Sequence record: NC_079175.1
Direction: 5' to 3' (one strand)
Length of the DNA: 53,040 nt
Origin: Escherichia phage PO103-1
In this document: positions 37-53,040 of the stretch, piece after piece
Layout of the letters: the number at the start of each line of letters is the position of its first letter
Numbering within the stretch: the stretch's first letter is position 1
Notes under the pieces: generated by a model
Databases searched by the model: none
What the model saw: the letters and a program-made list of their open reading frames with translations, nothing else
Told to the model about the DNA's origin: nothing
Translations under genes and position numbers: made by a program

Positions 37-186
37 AATAAAATTATAATATTGCCACAATTCGAGTCTCGTAGCTTTGTTACGAATTCTAGTCTCATTA
101 ATTCTGTAGCAATATTTAAATTAAAAAAAAAATTATAAAAAAAATTATTTCATAGTCGGTCTTCCATTCGAACAAATTTTGGCGAG

Positions 187-241
187 ATACAGCTGACCGA
201 CCATGAACGAATTACTGTCCAGGTACAGTTGACCGACCATG
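187..241. repeat. Two 17-19-bp direct repeats TACAG(C/T)TGACCGACCATG
   Basis: Copies at 187-205 and 223-241, near the left end of the genome as presented. Confidence 0.5.
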
Positions 242-283
242 TGCCATTTGGTTTTAACTTTACGCATTCCTAATATTACTCTT

Positions 284-300
284 AATATTGTAGCAATATT
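284..300. promoter_or_regulatory. Palindromic operator-like site AATATTG-tag-CAATATT
   Basis: Perfect 7-bp inverted repeat with 3-bp spacer. Confidence 0.4.
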
Positions 301-2403: not shown

Positions 2404-2945
2404 CAGAGTTCATTCCAGTCGATTGTTTCGGTTAGGTCGAGTTGAGACAGTTTGATACGCTTCTTCTTAAGTTTAATAAGCAGTTCGTTGTCAGACTTCT
2501 TGGCCATACCAAGCTCAACCATGTCAGTGAGAATGCCGATTTCTTCCGTCAATGGTGCAAGTTTCTTCTTACGCATAAACTCGTTATATTTCACACGGTT
2601 TTCTTTATGCTCGACAAACTTCTCACCATCAAACTTCCAAAAGTGTCTGTTTTCTTCAACACCCTCTGGCAGTGACTCCAGTTCAACTATGTTTCCACCC
2701 AGCGGTGTAGCCACAGTATCACCAGGACCAAAGTCAATGTGTCGAATAGTCCCATCATTTTCGTATACAACTTTGGCTGTACCGTCTTTTAAAGATTTGC
2801 GAATCTTATACCAGCATGTTCCATTCTTATCACATCCGAAGAGAATCTTGTGCTCGTCCTTGAGCACTTGCTGGTTTTCAGTCAGGTTTGTATTCTCAAC
2901 AAACCCTTCATACTTACACAGAATAACTGTCATACCACGTCCCAT
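2403..2945 (-). CDS. Tail fibre assembly protein (Tfa-like chaperone)
   Basis: C-terminal region LAPLTEE...LLIKLKKKRIKLSQLD...IDWN parallels the lambda Tfa C-terminus (IAPLQDA...LLEAWKKYRVLLNRVD...IEWP) as I recall it; directly follows a tail-fibre gene. Confidence 0.6.
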   Translation of the reverse strand: MGRGMTVILCKYEGFVENTNLTENQQVLKDEHKILFGCDKNGTCWYKIRKSLKDGTAKVVYENDGTIRHIDFGPGDTVATPLGGNIVELESLPEGVEENRHFWKFDGEKFVEHKENRVKYNEFMRKKKLAPLTEEIGILTDMVELGMAKKSDNELLIKLKKKRIKLSQLDLTETIDWNEL

Positions 2946-4266
2946 TCATATATTTCTGGAGTTTACGACGACCAACGTAGTCGATAAGTTCGTCAGCAGT
3001 TTGGTTGATTACAGCGGTGATTACCCAACCAGACTCATCTCGATACCCATAGCCACGCCATGTGGTAGTCTCTTGGTAAGAGGCCAGGCGAATATCACTC
3101 ATGAAGGAAGAGTTTACCCAATTCTCCCGTGCAAAACGGAATGGGCCGCCATTGCCAGTGTAGTCGATGTTGCCGTCATTCTGGAATACCCAGTTGTGCA
3201 CAGCACCATCATCACTTCGACGCGAAATTACAGGACTTGAGAAGTCAGATGTTCTGGAGTAAGCCCCGAAGGAAATCCAAGAGCCGTACCCATAGCCGGT
3301 CGTAGTTGTATGCAGTGTTAAAATAGGAACCCAGGCATCTGGACCCACTGTACAGTTATACACCCCATAAGGGACGTGTCCGTCTGCCTCTTGGCCCCAA
3401 CCACGACCCCAAGTTACGCCACGATACTGTCCATCCAAGAATAGCTTGAAGTCTTGTCCAGTACCACGTACTCCAAGTTGGTTGATGCCTTCTGCAATGA
3501 TACGTGCAGTGTAGTCTAAACCAGAGTTTGCATAGTGGAAGTCGATGTATGGAATATCGTTATACAACTCTATTGCACCAACTTCTGTGATGCGGTCGCG
3601 CTGATTTACTCGTGCAAGCTCTCTCCAATCGGCCCAATTCTGTGAGGAATCGAGTGTACGACTACGAACCCAAACGTTCCCATATATTGATGTGTAACGA
3701 TGTTGAACACCGTATGCAGTCGGAAGAACTTCCAGTGTGCCAGCATGTGCTGCCGGATAGCCACCAGCAGAGCCAGCCACAGCATCAGATATTTGGTAGT
3801 AAACCCCAACATCCGATGAATTTATCAGGAGGTTGATGTTCATACTTGCGGCATCTTTGCAAGCCATTACAGCATGTGCTGTGTACGTCCTGCTGCCAGA
3901 CGTACCTTGTGAGTAGTACATAATTGGCGGTCGTGCTGCCTGACCATGTGTTACTAAGATAGAGGCATTACTGTTATCAGAAATCCCAAGAACAGTTATG
4001 ATTACATATGCCCCACTGAACTTCCCAAGGTCCCACTTCTGTAACTCTGGTGGGACGTTTACAGCAGAGTTCATTTCAACATATAAAACTTCACCATTGG
4101 TGAATGTGTATGTATTGAAATTGAAGTTTGTTACAAATGCTGTGGCTGGAATCTGGGCATTCTTTTGTCCAACAGTGATTACCTCACCACGAGCAGTACC
4201 TGCATTTAAGAATGCAGCAGACTTTAAGGCGGCAATTAAGCCGCCAAATGACCAACCTTTAGCCAT
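2914..4266 (-). CDS. Tail fibre protein (distal, likely receptor-binding)
   Basis: 450 aa, Gly/Tyr/Thr/Asn-rich, last of three fibre-like genes and followed by the Tfa-like chaperone. Confidence 0.55.
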   Translation of the reverse strand: MAKGWSFGGLIAALKSAAFLNAGTARGEVITVGQKNAQIPATAFVTNFNFNTYTFTNGEVLYVEMNSAVNVPPELQKWDLGKFSGAYVIITVLGISDNSNASILVTHGQAARPPIMYYSQGTSGSRTYTAHAVMACKDAASMNINLLINSSDVGVYYQISDAVAGSAGGYPAAHAGTLEVLPTAYGVQHRYTSIYGNVWVRSRTLDSSQNWADWRELARVNQRDRITEVGAIELYNDIPYIDFHYANSGLDYTARIIAEGINQLGVRGTGQDFKLFLDGQYRGVTWGRGWGQEADGHVPYGVYNCTVGPDAWVPILTLHTTTTGYGYGSWISFGAYSRTSDFSSPVISRRSDDGAVHNWVFQNDGNIDYTGNGGPFRFARENWVNSSFMSDIRLASYQETTTWRGYGYRDESGWVITAVINQTADELIDYVGRRKLQKYMNGTWYDSYSV

Positions 4267-48845: not shown

Positions 48846-49030
48846 TTAGCCTCCAGAATTTGGCTCAATGAACTGAACACGATTTCCTCATGTTCGTCAG
48901 GTGTACATGCGTTGATGTATTCAAAGTCGTAACCAATAAACTTCTCCGCCCACTGTTGCAAACGAAGTAAAGAATTGAAGTACAATCTTTGCTCCACACC
49001 ATTTAACTTAAAGTAGACGATGAAGTCCAT
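48842..49030 (-). CDS. Hypothetical protein
   Basis: 62-aa ORF. Confidence 0.4.
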   Translation of the reverse strand: MDFIVYFKLNGVEQRLYFNSLLRLQQWAEKFIGYDFEYINACTPDEHEEIVFSSLSQILEAK

Positions 49031-49045
49031 GTTTACTCCTATGTA

Positions 49046-49264
49046 TTAAACTTCAATTGGCTCTTGAACTAAATCAGAGGCTGAGATTTCTTTAAACTCC
49101 TCCTCGGTAAAAGTTCTCTCATTGTCATTCAGCAGAACACCAATATTAGAATCACCAACGAATACGGCATTTACATTAACATCATCTTCCAAAACTTTTT
49201 GCAGGTGTTCTCCACCACGCGTAAAGAAGATTGCACCATCTTCCAAATCTTTAAAACGAATCAT
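49046..49264 (-). CDS. Hypothetical acidic protein
   Basis: 72-aa ORF, first gene after the non-coding repeat region. Confidence 0.4.
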   Translation of the reverse strand: MIRFKDLEDGAIFFTRGGEHLQKVLEDDVNVNAVFVGDSNIGVLLNDNERTFTEEEFKEISASDLVQEPIEV

Positions 49265-49553
49265 TTTATTCTCCTAAGTTAAAAGAACTCCCTACAGAAC
49301 GATTGTGGAGGTCTTGTCTTACCTCAATCCACCTTAAAGTTGTAGGGAGTTATATAGTATTCCTGTGTGTGCCGCCATCAGGGACTTCCTAGTCTGGTGG
49401 GCGCGTTGCAATCCAGCAATATACCACACGTTTTTCACAGGCTATATATGTGACACACAAAGTGTCGAAAAACTACAATGATTAGCTTGGAGACATAATC
49501 TCTCTAAAATCTGTCACACAATTTCAGCAGAATTTACAGAGATTTGGTCTTAT

Positions 49554-49574
49554 TCACATGCAACTAATGATAAA
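49554..49574 (-). promoter_or_regulatory. Early-region conserved motif copy
   Basis: tCATTAGTTGCATGTG at the lower edge of the non-coding repeat region. Confidence 0.3.
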
Positions 49575-49586
49575 TGAACATGCTTA

Positions 49587-49602
49587 ATTGCAACTAATTC
49601 AT
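49587..49602 (-). promoter_or_regulatory. Early-region conserved motif copy (degenerate)
   Basis: gAATTAGTTGCAat, tandem with the preceding copy. Confidence 0.25.
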
Positions 49603-49762
49603 CTGCCAAATAGACGAATTTTGTCACAATTAAACATGCACCATTAATTACAGGTTTACTCCCATACTTAACGTATTTGGCACATTAAGATTGGAGCAAG
49701 CAGGTACGGAAAACCGACCATGTACAGCATAATAAAACAAATTAAATAAAGGGTTTTATCCC

Positions 49763-49779
49763 AATATTGTCACAATATT
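49763..49779. promoter_or_regulatory. Palindromic operator-like site AATATTG-tca-CAATATT
   Basis: Perfect 7-bp inverted repeat with 3-bp spacer, followed by TACATGC. Confidence 0.4.
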
Positions 49780-50010
49780 ACATGCGATGATAAAGCCTTC
49801 GCTTGGCTGGAAGCCAGTATTCATGCGGGTTGCAAGAATATTGGGTTAATGCTGATACAGCTATTACATGCGAAATTGGCACAAATACTGTTACAAAATT
49901 AACATGCCAGATTGGTAGACGATTGTATCTTCGAGGTGATTAGTCCTCTAACAATTCTGCCACATTCCAACATGCCAATTTGTAGCAATATTTACATGCC
50001 ATACTGCGAC

Positions 50011-50027
50011 AATATTGTCACAATATT
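50011..50027. promoter_or_regulatory. Palindromic operator-like site AATATTG-tca-CAATATT
   Basis: Identical palindrome; partial copies near 48-62, 49617-49637 and 50192-50208. Confidence 0.4.
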
Positions 50028-50407
50028 TGTTGCTCAAAATCGGGGCGGGCTACGGGATTAGTTTCGCAGCTTTGCTCCGACTCTTCTCTTCTTTCGAATT
50101 CTGATTGAAAGAAAGAAGCATGTCCAAAAGTTCCAATATTATCAAAGTTATCTCCCGGCTTGTGGGTGGGCCTTTATAATAGGAGATGGAGCAATATTGT
50201 CGCAATTGAACATGCTATAGGTGAAGTACAAGTTTCGAATAGATATTCCTACTCTAAGTCATGGTTGCTGGAACTGTAGGTGGCCTACCTAGGGAGTTCA
50301 ATGATTGCCACATCATTACAACACTGTAACTCAAAGCTGACATGCTGAATGTTTCTAGAATGATTCAACATGACATGCGGAATATTTCTCCGTATTCTTT
50401 TACTTCA

Positions 50408-50427
50408 CATCCAACTAATGTTACAAC
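50408..50427 (-). promoter_or_regulatory. Early-region conserved motif copy
   Basis: gttgtaACATTAGTTGGATG between the RNAP-adjacent small gene and the non-coding region. Confidence 0.35.
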
Positions 50428-50495
50428 TGGCTACAATATTGAAGTCAGCTCTAAGATTAATTGGAACAAGAAAAGGGAGCCGAAGCTCCCAAGTA

Positions 50496-50732
50496 TCAGA
50501 ACGGTATCTCTGTATCAAAGAATCCAGAATTGTGCAAATATGCGTGCAATAATACATGCGATTCTTGCTTATATTCTGCTAACAATTCTAAGAAGTCTTT
50601 AGTCTCCTCCACTGTAGGACGAGATAAATTGTTCATGTCACAGGTGTGATGAGGATTGAAACAGTTTTCGATTTGATTGATTTGCATGGTATTCATTGTA
50701 GTCTCCAAGTAGTTGTGGTCATCCTTGACCAA
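50496..50732 (-). CDS. Hypothetical small early protein with C-terminal ...DTEIPF tail
   Basis: 78-aa ORF immediately downstream of the RNA polymerase gene. Confidence 0.4.
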   Translation of the reverse strand: MVKDDHNYLETTMNTMQINQIENCFNPHHTCDMNNLSRPTVEETKDFLELLAEYKQESHVLLHAYLHNSGFFDTEIPF

Positions 50733-50738
50733 TTAATA

Positions 50739-52679
50739 TTATTGACAGAAGTAGTAAGCGTGTTCGCTCATCAGAAGCTCTTCGGTTACGATGTTCTCAT
50801 GATACATCTGAATGCCACCAAGTTGCTTAGACAGATTCTCGAATTGATTGTTGGTTACAAAGATTTCAACATATGCTGCACGAATAACTTCCATCATACG
50901 TGGAGCATCTGCCAAACAGCAACGGAAACAATCATGGATTGAAGTGAAGCCACGAAGACCAGCTTCTTTAGCTTTAACTGCAACAGTACGAGCAACAAGT
51001 GCATCAATACCTTGAATGTAGTTAACAACGAAAGTACGCTTGAATTCTTCTTTAGTTGGATTGGATTCACGAATGGTCCAAGGCTTATTCTCCTGAATCT
51101 GACCAAAGATAACACGAGTTTGGCTGTCAACACGAATGCTGAATGCCTCACAGATTTCACGAGATGGGAAGCAAGGCTTCATTACAACCTGACCATCAGT
51201 GTGACGGTATGTGATGTACTCTTTACCAAGTTCAACACAACGGTTGTATGCAGCATCAGCAGCTTTCTCAATGAACATGTTAATCTTAGCACCCAATGCG
51301 TTATGGATTGCTTCCACACACAGTTCAGCAAATGCCTCAGCTTTCTCCATAGGAATCTGGAGAGCTTCTGTCATGTAGCTAATGAAGTCAGATGAACCAG
51401 TTAATGCAGCTTTACCACCACCGTATTGAATGGCCATGTAAGGAGTTTTGATAAACTTACGACCAGCTTTCGGATTCAAGAATTCATCCATGATTTCAGC
51501 AGATGGTTTCATTGAAGAACGGTCGAGTAACTTCAACAGCTCACGAAGACTCAACTGGTATGGGTCAGATGCTTTAGTCTCAGAATCAACCAGACCTGTT
51601 GCACGAGCCATTTCCATGTTACCAGCAATGAATGCCAGATATTGAGTACCAGAACATTTAGCATCTAATCCAAAGCCTACACGAGAATCGCATTCACCTG
51701 TAGTCTCAAACTTGAACCAATCCAGAGCCAGACGAACATAAGTGAATGGCTTAGAAGGACGTTCAGCTTTAGGCATGTTCATCATGCGAGCAAGTGAACC
51801 AGCTGGATTCTGAGCAACATAAGTTAAACGCTTAGCACTGCACCATTCACCACCAGAAATATCTTCCAGCTCTGCCATGAACATGTTGTATGCAATGGTA
51901 GTAGAACCATCTTCGTTAAACTTCTTAACGATGTTCTCAACATTGTGAGAATACAAGCAACGAGCAAAGTCAGAGGATTGTGGGTTAGGACCAGCACATG
52001 CTACATGATACAGGCGACCACGGTTATCAGCAAAGTAGTCAGAATACAGTGTGTCCTGATTCATCATTGCTACAGCATTGTTCCAAACATGGAGTTCAGT
52101 CTGGATTGCTTCTGGCATCTGCAAGCCACCGTAGGTACGTTGTTCAAGCATGGACTGGATGATGCGAACCATCTCAGTCTCCACATGGTACTCAGTATCT
52201 TGCAGGAATTCGATTGCAGCTTTCAGAGTCTTGGATGGCTTAACTTTGCCACCTTTAACGAAAGGCTTGCGACGAGATTCAGATGTAACACGCTCAGTGA
52301 ATGGCACTGCGGTGTCTTTGGTTGTAACCAGTTCAACCCATGTGTCAGTCTGTTGGAATGACTTGTCTTCGTTCATGGTTATGAAGCCAAAGTGCTTAGC
52401 CAGACCAATGAGGTTGATAGCTGGGTCAACATAGTGCATTGCTTTCAAATCGTTGTTGTAGCGGTTGGCATCAGCAATAGAAGCAGAAGCCAGCTCAACC
52501 ATCGCAATGGCAGGAACAACGTCGTCACGTGTGAAAGACGTCATCATCTTGAATATGGCTAAGGCAGCAATAGCACAAGTCTGAGGCTGCATATAGTTCT
52601 GCTTCTCTTTGGCACGGTATACCAGAGCAGTGATAGCAGGAACAACAGATTTGATAGTTTGAGTGGTGATAGTAGTCAT
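50739..52679 (-). CDS. Single-subunit DNA-dependent RNA polymerase (T7-like, compact)
   Basis: 646 aa; GLDAKCSGTQYLAFIAG, RKFIKTPYMAIQYGGG and SIHDCF parallel T7 RNAP DGSCSGIQHFSAML, RSVTKRSVMTLAYGS and HDSFGT; GGAG 8 nt upstream of ATG. Confidence 0.85.
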   Translation of the reverse strand: MTTITTQTIKSVVPAITALVYRAKEKQNYMQPQTCAIAALAIFKMMTSFTRDDVVPAIAMVELASASIADANRYNNDLKAMHYVDPAINLIGLAKHFGFITMNEDKSFQQTDTWVELVTTKDTAVPFTERVTSESRRKPFVKGGKVKPSKTLKAAIEFLQDTEYHVETEMVRIIQSMLEQRTYGGLQMPEAIQTELHVWNNAVAMMNQDTLYSDYFADNRGRLYHVACAGPNPQSSDFARCLYSHNVENIVKKFNEDGSTTIAYNMFMAELEDISGGEWCSAKRLTYVAQNPAGSLARMMNMPKAERPSKPFTYVRLALDWFKFETTGECDSRVGFGLDAKCSGTQYLAFIAGNMEMARATGLVDSETKASDPYQLSLRELLKLLDRSSMKPSAEIMDEFLNPKAGRKFIKTPYMAIQYGGGKAALTGSSDFISYMTEALQIPMEKAEAFAELCVEAIHNALGAKINMFIEKAADAAYNRCVELGKEYITYRHTDGQVVMKPCFPSREICEAFSIRVDSQTRVIFGQIQENKPWTIRESNPTKEEFKRTFVVNYIQGIDALVARTVAVKAKEAGLRGFTSIHDCFRCCLADAPRMMEVIRAAYVEIFVTNNQFENLSKQLGGIQMYHENIVTEELLMSEHAYYFCQ

Positions 52680-52749
52680 TTGTAAGTCTCCAAGATTGTG
52701 TATGATTTAACTGAAACGGATTATAATAGCGTAGCCATTACACAATTCA

Positions 52750-52770
52750 CTTCCAACTAATATCACAAAC
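52750..52770 (-). promoter_or_regulatory. Early-region conserved motif copy upstream of the RNA polymerase gene
   Basis: gtgatATTAGTTGGAAG about 75 nt upstream of the RNAP ATG; a TATAAT hexamer lies about 30 nt further downstream. Confidence 0.35.
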
Positions 52771-52910
52771 CTGTGCCATTGTTACAACAGCACGGAGACT
52801 TTGACCTTGACCCATAAGCGAAGCGCCTAACTTGGTGTTGTTTGAAAGCCGATAGGCTGTAGGAAAAAGTTGGAGTAGGGACCGTATTTAAGTCCGATAG
52901 GACGTTGGGC

Positions 52911-52974
52911 TTCCCCCCCTCCTCGGAGATAAAAATTTTAAAATAATAATGTCACAACTTCCCCTCCTCGCTGG
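52911..52974. repeat. Two C-rich direct repeats (T)TCCCCTCCTCG
   Basis: Copies at 52911-52926 and 52958-52974, near the right end. Confidence 0.4.
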
Positions 52975-52975
52975 C

Positions 52976-53040
<65 letters not shown>

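Follow-up and report, generated by a model that had tools for sequence, protein, structure and literature searches.

What is the task of the roughly 1.1 kb of DNA, devoid of recognizable genes and dense in short repeats, that follows the RNA polymerase gene of Escherichia phage PO103-1? The original prediction, made from the letters of sequence record NC_079175.1 (53,040 nt, the whole stretch analyzed here and referred to as the window), placed this region at positions 49265–50340 and, by analogy with T7, proposed a replication origin or a regulator-binding hub. Our computational follow-up suggests that the region most likely controls cutting, packaging or replication of the phage DNA. The reading we favor, to which we assign a probability of roughly 0.35, is that an array of protein-binding sites would mark the concatemer junction for cleavage of the terminal repeat or for packaging. 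A role at the junction is favored by the combination of three features: the array is found solely on the two sides flanking the terminal repeat, the repeat's inner boundary falls within the array on every end map except that of phage PYps23T, and a distant relative has an analogous arrangement at the same place.

By its sequence, the window is a Carltongylesvirus (Chaseviridae, phiEcoM-GJ1/ST32-like), and the 77 phage records that match positions 49000–50800 are headed by Carltongylesvirus phages of Escherichia and Yersinia, including Ecp_YSF, flopper, ST32, SA91KD, Mangalitsa and PYps23T. Chaseviruses are myoviruses with a T7-like RNA polymerase encoded inside a terminal repeat of about 3 kb, and with Erwinia, E. 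coli, Yersinia and Pectobacterium as targets, they are under development for biocontrol and as reporters; engineering such phages requires knowledge of the cis elements needed for packaging and replication. According to the ICTV, the international committee for virus taxonomy, chasevirus genomes are linear and non-permuted, with terminal repeats of about 3 kbp.

A conserved, non-coding gap

The minus strand of the window carries every long open reading frame (ORF), and from these ORFs together with the layout of the matching phages we take the minus strand as the gene strand, so that the gap lies 3' of the RNA polymerase gene in that sense. The polymerase is encoded by a 646-aa ORF at 50739–52679 (minus strand, stop at 50739) that matches a Pfam RNA polymerase family. 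The window also codes for a T7-like primase-helicase, a family A DNA polymerase, a large terminase subunit and the small chain of ribonucleotide reductase, and genes for a single-stranded DNA-binding protein (SSB), an exonuclease and a ligase were found as well. The region had been described as lying immediately downstream of the polymerase gene, a description that has to be amended, because a 66-aa ORF, an intrinsic terminator and a copy of a promoter-like motif (50404–50420) intervene. The gene-free gap is larger than 49265–50340, extending over about 49265–50495 (about 1.23 kb), and is closed by a start codon at 49264.

The reported lack of ORFs of 60 aa or more between 49265 and 50340 holds, the longest overlapping ORF on either strand comprising 51 aa (50050–50205, minus strand). 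Small proteins encoded in the gap were rejected, since the nucleotide sequence is conserved, yet no frame of at least 30 aa stays open in phages 4HA13, Y2 or PM1; the length differences of the gap between genera are not multiples of three, and in-frame stops arise in the gap ORFs. Searches for a known structured RNA or a tRNA were empty, with no Rfam match at gathering score for the region and no hit in the tRNA search.

A comparable gap follows the RNA polymerase gene in phiEcoM-GJ1 (GJ1 below), PYps23T, 4HA13 (Sabourvirus), Y2 (Loessnervirus) and PM1 (Suwonvirus), and the polymerases of the last three phages are 71–76% identical to that of the window. Position and sequence of the gap are kept in four Cleopatravirinae genera and in a fifth, metagenomic lineage, and the motifs noted in the original prediction are conserved across the four genera. 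To quantify conservation over the four genera, 4HA13, Y2 and PM1 were each compared with the window and their identities averaged. The mean amounts to 0.92 for a block at 50152–50183, 0.82 for the motif copy at 50404 and 0.64–0.82 for the repeated palindromic sites described below, one of which is an exception with 0.44. By comparison, the remainder of the gap averages 0.51 and the 66-aa ORF 0.40. The gap is thus non-coding and under purifying selection, and neither of the outcomes named as refuting the original prediction, coding for small proteins and lack of the motifs in relatives, is seen.

Several of the records matching the gap, among them OR327751.1 and MW147598.1, annotate 3–11 'hypothetical proteins' within the matched 1.8 kb, part of them on the opposite strand; where such annotations lie in the non-coding gap, they probably represent over-annotation. 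In the literature that could be searched, no paper describes the region, and only two 'putative promoters' and the terminal repeats are mentioned there; the ST32 paper makes no mention of promoters, repeats or termini. A stretch of DNA left unannotated or over-annotated, with up to 11 hypothetical proteins in 1.8 kb, can now be resolved into separate conserved elements, namely a candidate promoter in dispersed copies, an oriented operator-like array specific to the repeat flanks, the repeat boundary with its purine tract and a highly conserved block that carries a sigma70-like promoter.

An oriented palindrome array and a dispersed promoter candidate

Two distinct motifs, previously run together, can be told apart: a dispersed one, CATTAGTTGGATGTGAA (class 1), and one confined to the gap and the right-end region (class 2). 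Read on the gene strand, the class 2 element is an oriented unit of about 25 bp consisting of the hexamer GCATGT, 6–7 nt and a 17-bp palindromic core, which in its perfect form is an 8-1-8 palindrome, AATATTGT-G-ACAATATT. This describes the element better than the perfect palindrome AATATTG-N3-CAATATT originally reported, which is indeed present, exactly, at 284, 49763 and 50011 and nowhere else in the window. Near-matches to the 17-mer elsewhere in the window are limited to the right-end region and one chance-level match with three mismatches. The count of at least eight (T/A)ACATGC repeats was likewise borne out, with eight in the region; their spacing, given as 60–130 bp, is in fact 22–216 bp.

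The hexamer is strongly concentrated and oriented. ACATGC, which reads GCATGT on the gene strand, occurs 20 times in the window, 10 times in 49265–50340 and 12 times in 49265–50738, compared with 0.25 occurrences expected in the region from shuffled sequences (shuffle maximum 3; binomial P ~2e-12). Twelve of the 20 gene-strand copies of GCATGT in the window are thus packed into 1.5 kb, and the gap has 12 on the gene (minus) strand versus one reversed, at 50118. There are about eight full copies of the element, with GCATGT starts at 50215, 49999, 49975, 49907, 49871, 49785 and 49639 on the minus strand, and a diverged copy at 50559 within the 66-aa ORF. Core-to-core distances are irregular (182, 11, 24, 92, 121 and 146 bp; range 11–182).

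The sites differ in completeness. That at 50190–50215 (minus strand), GCATGTTCAATTGCGACAATATTGCT, is the last copy inside the terminal repeat. Four sites on the minus strand share the interval 49846–49999 (starts 49999, 49975, 49907 and 49871) and have orthologues in 4HA13, Y2 and PM1 with identities of 0.44–0.82. The best site, GCATGTAATATTGTGACAATATTGGG (49760–49785, minus strand), contains the perfect palindrome 49763–49779 and is followed by an AT-rich stretch of 33 nt (49730–49762); another, GCATGTTTAATTGTGACAAAATTCGT, lies at 49614–49639 (minus strand). A perfect palindrome without GCATGT, AATATTGTGACAATATT, is located at 50011–50027, and a conserved twin element, CCGCATGTCATG...CAGCATGTCA (50338–50380, minus strand), has two GCATGT hexamers and no palindrome.

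The array is a shared property of these phages. In a MAFFT alignment of the gaps, individual class 2 sites are orthologous in 4HA13, Y2 and PM1, which share the same architecture, and the relatives compared have 9–12 GCATGT per gap in gene orientation with the same kind of core. Scanning IMG/VR with the 17-mer palindrome matched 28 loci, and arrays were found only on contigs of chasevirus size, with 9–13 GCATGT versus 0–1 reversed (6 versus 0 in an end-truncated Faunus locus). An array in other phage groups was rejected, the non-chasevirus matches in IMG/VR being single chance matches.

The class 1 motif behaves differently. Ten copies with up to three mismatches are present in the window compared with 0.27 expected by chance, all on the gene strand, at 52746, 50404, 49553, 46157, 45768, 41726, 41586, 41398, 39432 and 31747; the copies checked are intergenic, one lies 67 nt upstream of the RNA polymerase gene itself, and none is found in the late (structural) half of the genome, the copies being dispersed from 52746 to 31747. 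The motif, which is probably the 'early motif' of the original prediction, is annotated as 'putative phage promoter' in the phiEcoM-GJ1 and SA91KD records, and we consider it a good candidate for the promoter of the phage RNA polymerase. The copy at 50404–50420 (minus strand) is an exact match to CATTAGTTGGATGTGAA, corresponds to 'putative phage promoter 1' of phiEcoM-GJ1 and points into the gap. The second copy of the gap follows a GCATGT hexamer, the two together forming CATTAGTTGCATGTGAA at 49553–49583 (minus strand); by motif match and record annotation it corresponds to 'putative phage promoter 2' of GJ1, and it probably drives the first cluster of small genes. The region had been said to be bracketed by copies of the early motif, which is true insofar as the copies at 50404 and 49553 enclose most of the gap; the one at 49553–49569, however, lies inside 49265–50340, and the one at 50404–50420 lies 64 nt beyond it.

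Could the class 2 elements themselves be phage RNA polymerase promoters, forming a tandem bank that feeds a genome transcribed in one direction? All copies point in the gene direction, and GTGACAATATTG resembles GTGACACTATAG, the core of the SP6 promoter. The proposal would also fill a vacancy, as the ICTV lists the promoters of chaseviruses as not yet identified. Nevertheless, we regard it as very improbable. The orientation expected of a promoter is found in both classes, whereas dispersal is found only in class 1, with its ten gene-strand copies; no class 2 element lies upstream of any other gene cluster, and the palindromic symmetry and variable 3' ends of class 2 are ill-suited to a start site. 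A local repeat in the distant phage ZPAH14 (see below) is likewise absent from the rest of its genome. Class 2 was thus rejected as a general phage promoter, given that its sites are restricted to the flanks of the repeat and those of class 1 are scattered.

The palindromic 17-mers have the appearance of operators bound by a DNA-binding protein that is dimeric, with the strictly oriented GCATGT arm giving each site a direction. To our knowledge, the palindrome matches none of the consensus sites of CRP, LexA, Fur, NrdR, LacI or DnaA. Operators of this kind could also serve as a transcriptional switch, at which an early phage or host repressor or activator times the passage from early to middle expression; the targets would be a sigma70-like promoter in the gap, transcription that runs on from the RNA polymerase gene, and the first gene cluster's class 1 promoter. 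The sigma70-like promoter spans 50205–50176 (TTGCGA-18-TATTAT), and its –35 element overlaps the core of the class 2 site at 50190–50215. Its –10 element, TATTAT, belongs to the most conserved block of the gap, CCTATTATAAAGGCCCACCCACAAGCCGGGAG (50152–50183, minus strand), which lies about 90 nt inside the repeat boundary and is identical or nearly so in 12 phages of five lineages. A switch would fit this overlap, the 17-bp 8-1-8 palindromes, which are typical of dimer operators, and the position of the array, which comes after the early unit's terminator and before the promoter and leader that serve the next genes. On the other hand, about ten operators over 600 bp, with more at the far genome end beyond the last gene, seem excessive for one switch, a palindromic operator does not need a strictly kept orientation of GCATGT, and sigma70-like –35/–10 sites are not enriched in the gap (9 found versus 10.7 expected), the last result also leading us to reject a sigma70 promoter cluster of the T7 A1–A3 or T5 early type. 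Nor was a regulator recognized among 40 early and middle proteins searched against Pfam and PHROGs. Overall, a switch is a live rival of junction marking, if a less probable one.

The repeat boundary and the concatemer junction

From comparison with related phages, the genome appears to carry a direct terminal repeat of about 2.8 kb running from 52894 to 50079 (2816 bp), with its inner boundary at 50079/50078; the boundary would thus lie inside the gap, and the gap would straddle it. Besides the RNA polymerase gene and the 66-aa ORF, this repeat would hold two class 1 copies (52746 and 50404) and the first of the class 2 sites. The homology-based end map draws on four phages studied in different laboratories with different methods: the records of Y2 and PM1 contain both repeat copies (2608 and 2665 bp by self-comparison), and those of Mangalitsa and 4HA13 report PhageTerm repeats of 3234 and 3120 bp. 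Location of the inner boundary inside the region shifts its likeliest role toward processing of the concatemer junction or packaging.

The ends coincide closely (slashes mark the boundaries). The outer (left) boundary, CCTATCG/GACTTAAATACGGTCCC at 52878–52901 (minus strand; first repeat base 52894), was placed by homology to the record or repeat starts of the four relatives, with Y2 reading CCTGTCG/GACTTAATAATACGGTCCC, PM1 CCCTATCG/GGAGATAAATACGGTCCC, and Mangalitsa and 4HA13 beginning 4–5 nt further on. At the inner (right) boundary, CGAAAGAAGAGAAGAGTC/GGAGC at 50074–50096 (minus strand; last repeat base 50079), the right ends of the four relatives fall within about 5 nt of one alignment column, which in the window reads GAAGAGAAGAGTC/GGAGC; PM1 has GAGAGTC/GAAC, Y2 GGCATCC/GGG and Mangalitsa GAAGAGAAG/AGTCGGAGC, and 4HA13 ends 5 nt later. 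The inner boundary sits in an interval of about 215 nt free of class 2 elements, 136 nt from the last such element inside the repeat and 80 nt from the first one outside, and is preceded by a 16-nt purine tract. Around the inferred cut, four GCATGT are inside the repeat and eight outside, with the element-free zone at the cut itself; the first class 2 site outside the repeat lies 67–90 nt past the boundary in Y2, PM1, 4HA13 and the window, and the perfect palindrome at 50011–50027 lies 51 nt outside it.

The other flank of the repeat carries related sites. The window is a circular-style assembly; the DNA that directly precedes the repeat in a concatemer runs from 390 to 1 and then from 53040 to 52895, after the reductase gene. 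Its untranslated part (48–300, minus strand) has palindromic cores at 284–300, 101–117 and 48–63, the latter two prefixed with GAGACT in place of GCATGT; the flopper record annotates repeat_region features at the homologous place. The original prediction had noted the palindrome at 284–300 and suggested that it would be contiguous with the gap in a circularly permuted genome. This does not apply, as the family is non-permuted and the whole terminal repeat with the RNA polymerase gene intervenes. In Y2, in PM1 and in the window's own genus (ST32/flopper arrangement), palindromic cores are found 47–55 nt before the left boundary and 49–62 nt after the right one. A third motif (class 3), GGTCGGT-N5-GTAyC, occurs at 222–238 and 186–202 in this right-end DNA and once in the gap, as GGTCGGTTTTCCGTACC at 49703–49719 (minus strand), and is present in Y2 and PM1 as well. 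In addition, a module of a palindrome, about 45 nt and CATGGTCGGT is seen on both repeat flanks.

A more distant chasevirus shows a similar layout. In Aeromonas phage ZPAH14 (Shantouvirus), whose RNA polymerase is about 34% identical to that of the window, the polymerase gene is followed by a 1044-bp gap (2617–3657), and the 3373-bp terminal repeat ends within it. An oriented repeat unlike class 2, GTATGAGAC, occurs five times in this gap and nowhere else in 54 kb, and the repeat end (3373) lies among its copies; the gap also contains a 21-bp perfect palindrome, ATATTATCATGATGATAATAT. The context of the left boundary is as in the other phages, with a T-run, a G-rich block and then about 15–20 nt, which lends further support to the homology-based end map. 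Judged by sequence, a gap with an oriented array and a repeat end is a layout of the whole family, with ZPAH14 as a positional analogue that uses a different motif. A form related to the class 3 motif, GTCGGTCGACC, was also seen in ZPAH14.

How might such an array act? We propose that the palindromic cores would be operators of a dimeric, sequence-specific DNA-binding protein, probably encoded by the phage. In the replicative concatemer, a single copy of the repeat would stand between genomes, and protein arrays on both of its flanks would mark the junction and position a terminase or nicking activity at the repeat boundaries, such that the repeat is duplicated and packaging starts. The different 5' hexamers, GCATGT here and GAGACT on the other flank, could let the two boundaries be told apart. 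Phages of the T7 type use transcription for replication initiation and junction processing, and the class 1 promoters in the region would probably supply such transcription, so that origin and packaging functions may overlap in the gap.

Several observations weigh against marking of the junction by the array. Reaching over 500 bp away from the cut, the array exceeds in length most of the terminase recognition sites known, and the proteins that would use it were not found: the 40 early and middle proteins contain no helix-turn-helix, initiator or other regulator family by Pfam and PHROGs, many of them having no known family, and no small terminase subunit was recognized. At the right end, the array is poorly conserved in Y2, and the mirror-orientation similarity of the two flanks is weak (4–6 of 300 shuffles reach the observed score), for which reason it was not used as evidence. 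Furthermore, the boundary of PO103-1 was placed by homology and not measured, and the closest relative with experimentally determined ends, PYps23T, does not agree with it. Its authors obtained a 2339-bp repeat by restriction digests, ligation-PCR (polymerase chain reaction) and direct sequencing, a length confirmed in the record, and these ends map to 52751 and 50410 of the window, outside 49265–50340.

Both ends of the PYps23T repeat fall at the same point of the class 1 motif, ...ATTAGTTGGA/CGTGAA and ...ATTAGTTGGA/TGTGAA. The cut point of this repeat (1 to 2339) within the motif, TTAGTTGGA/, conflicts with the ends of Y2, PM1, Mangalitsa and 4HA13, and the analysis thus reveals conflicting published end maps inside one genus. 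Two class 1 copies, at 52746–52762 and 50404–50420, bracket the RNA polymerase gene as direct repeats. Either PYps23T differs from the other phages, with end formation tied to class 1, or the discrepancy stems from PCR recombination between two 17-bp direct repeats.

Another conceivable way to form the ends would be by transcription-coupled priming and not by a sequence-specific terminase cut. The inner boundary is preceded on the gene strand by GAAAGAAGAGAAGAGTC/, and GGGGAGGGG lies about 20 nt before the outer one; such tracts are also present in the Aeromonas phage. Transcripts from class 1 promoters would enter these purine- or G-rich tracts and form stable R-loops, and their RNA 3' ends would prime strand-displacement synthesis that duplicates the 2.8-kb repeat, much as the mitochondrial RNA polymerase, which is T7-like, makes primers at conserved sequence block II; the protein array on class 2 would act as a roadblock or fix the boundary site. 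We consider this model very unlikely.

Replication initiation, proposed in the original prediction, remains a tentative second candidate, less probable than junction marking. The hub part of that proposal fits the palindromic cores, and the comparison with T7 finds some footing in the T7-like replication genes and in two promoter-like motifs that point into and out of the gap, but a T7-type origin leaves the array unexplained. An origin could work by phage RNA polymerase starting at the class 1 copy at 50404 (or 49553), opening the AT-rich stretch at 49730–49762 and priming synthesis, with the class 2 elements as iterons. The replication genes of the window are T7-like (primase-helicase and family A polymerase, plus SSB, exonuclease and ligase), the gap lies downstream of the RNA polymerase gene as the primary origin of T7 does, oriented promoter-like motifs bracket it, and an AT-rich stretch after the best palindrome recalls the lambda origin (ori), which likewise has several palindromic sites of about 17–19 bp beside an AT-rich stretch. 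However, a T7-type origin does not need iterons, leaving the array without explanation, and where an iteron origin has at least three regularly spaced direct repeats beside an unwinding element, the cores here are spaced irregularly over 11–182 bp. Unlike at lambda ori, no initiator gene was recognized around or within the array or among the 40 early and middle proteins in Pfam and PHROGs, and some of the array is found again at the opposite genome end. A DnaA-box array is also lacking, with 0–2 boxes per gap, and an origin would account neither for the repeat boundary within the array nor for the cores at the other repeat flank.

Among the closest known counterparts of the gap is the injection stop region of T5, an untranslated stretch of more than 1 kb located where the long left terminal repeat, with the first-expressed genes, has its inner end. 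Like the chasevirus gap, it is large, dense in repeats, inverted repeats and palindromes, and conserved, in this case in 25 relatives (Davison preprint). By analogy, the gap might be a checkpoint of genome entry: at first only the repeat and its RNA polymerase gene would enter, with the remaining DNA held back at the array, and the polymerase, once made, would pull in the remainder from the class 1 promoter. The order of elements is compatible with this idea, as the polymerase gene is the only long gene in the repeat and is followed by the terminator and then by a phage promoter motif. The T5 region, however, lies wholly inside the repeat and has unrelated motifs and eight ordered DnaA boxes, whereas the chasevirus gap straddles the boundary and has 0–2 matches to TTWTNCACA in each of six phages; the DnaA-box array that defines the T5 region is therefore absent. 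An entry stop would also have no need of the related cores that are found beyond the repeat at the opposite genome end. Two-step entry is known for T5, and we know of no report of it for the chasevirus myoviruses. An entry checkpoint is accordingly improbable.

Other known systems resemble the gap in part. T7 shares with the chaseviruses the single-subunit RNA polymerase, the replication genes, promoter-like motifs beside the repeat and cis-acting DNA, its primary origin, just downstream of the polymerase gene. At the T7 concatemer junction (phiOR, phiOL, pacB), nearby transcription and a palindrome beside the repeat take part in end formation. Its repeat, in contrast, is 160 bp long and gene-free, compared with about 2.8 kb including the polymerase gene here, T7 lacks an array of palindromic operators, and its class II pause signal, ATCTGTT, does not occur in the chasevirus gap; a T5-like DnaA-box array, an IHF consensus and Chi are absent from the gap too. 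The hexamer clusters of P1 pac, the R sites of lambda cosB and pacL/pacR of SPP1 resemble the array in having short oriented elements on both sides of the cut, which in the chaseviruses is an inferred one. The chasevirus array is much longer (about 1 kb) and irregularly spaced, and P1, lambda and SPP1 package by headful or cos and not with long direct terminal repeats. A repeat-rich untranslated control region tied to a repeat boundary or concatemer junction is thus of a kind already known from T5, T7 and P1; the novelty lies in the motifs, in an operator-like array that occupies both flanks of the repeat, and in the setting, a myovirus with the RNA polymerase gene inside the repeat.

Terminator, leader and other sequence features

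Between the RNA polymerase gene and the array, an intrinsic terminator-like hairpin with a T-rich tail, GGGAGCTTCGGCTCCC, lies at 50466–50490 (minus strand; terminator 50475–50490) and probably ends the early transcription unit with the RNA polymerase gene. In the SA91KD record, too, a terminator is annotated directly behind the RNA polymerase gene, though its position differs and does not align. The 66-aa ORF (50496–50696, minus strand) directly follows the polymerase gene inside the terminal repeat and matches phrog_20790, a family of unknown function (E 9e-17). Y2 and PM1 lack this ORF, which in GJ1 is replaced; its product is unlikely to bind the array, as Y2 and PM1 keep the array without the ORF.

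A further hairpin at 50270–50299 (minus strand), GAACTCCCT-stem-loop-AGTTCC, has conserved outer arms (GAACT/AGTTC), while the inner stem reads AGGTAGG/CCTAC in the window and CTTTG/CAAAG in GJ1. As judged by eye, the sequence differs and the pairing is kept, which suggests a structural element in RNA or DNA. A conserved C-rich block, CCCGTAGCCCGCCCCG (50041–50056, minus strand; G-rich on the other strand), lies between the boundary and the first palindrome outside the repeat.

Just ahead of the ribosome-binding site of the first small gene (start 49264), a long interrupted leader hairpin spans 49288–49349 (minus strand). The leader RNA from the class 1 copy at 49553 to this gene folds better than shuffled sequences (z = –3.5), and the hairpin has a consensus structure in five phages with little covariation and is conserved in Escherichia-type genera. 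About 100 bp of the leader (about 49355–49455) are present only in the window and PYps23T and are absent from phiEcoM-GJ1, 4HA13, Y2 and PM1.

The window shows near-total avoidance of the Dam/MboI site. GATC occurs once (38978) in 53,040 bases, compared with about 200 sites expected from composition, and is absent from the gap in all six phages compared; CTAG (0.21 of expected) and TATA (0.39) are also low. T7 is likewise known for avoidance of this site.

Finally, the window starts with 34 A (1–34) and ends with 63 A (52978–53040), which when joined form a run of about 97 nt, or poly(T) on the gene strand, 85–180 nt ahead of the left boundary of the repeat. At the corresponding place ST32, flopper, PYps23T, Y2 and PM1 have merely a short T-rich run, and the long run could be an artefact or could mark a genuine homopolymer at which the assembly broke. 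The window further contains, at 52911–52957, an insertion of 47 nt that includes a partial duplication.

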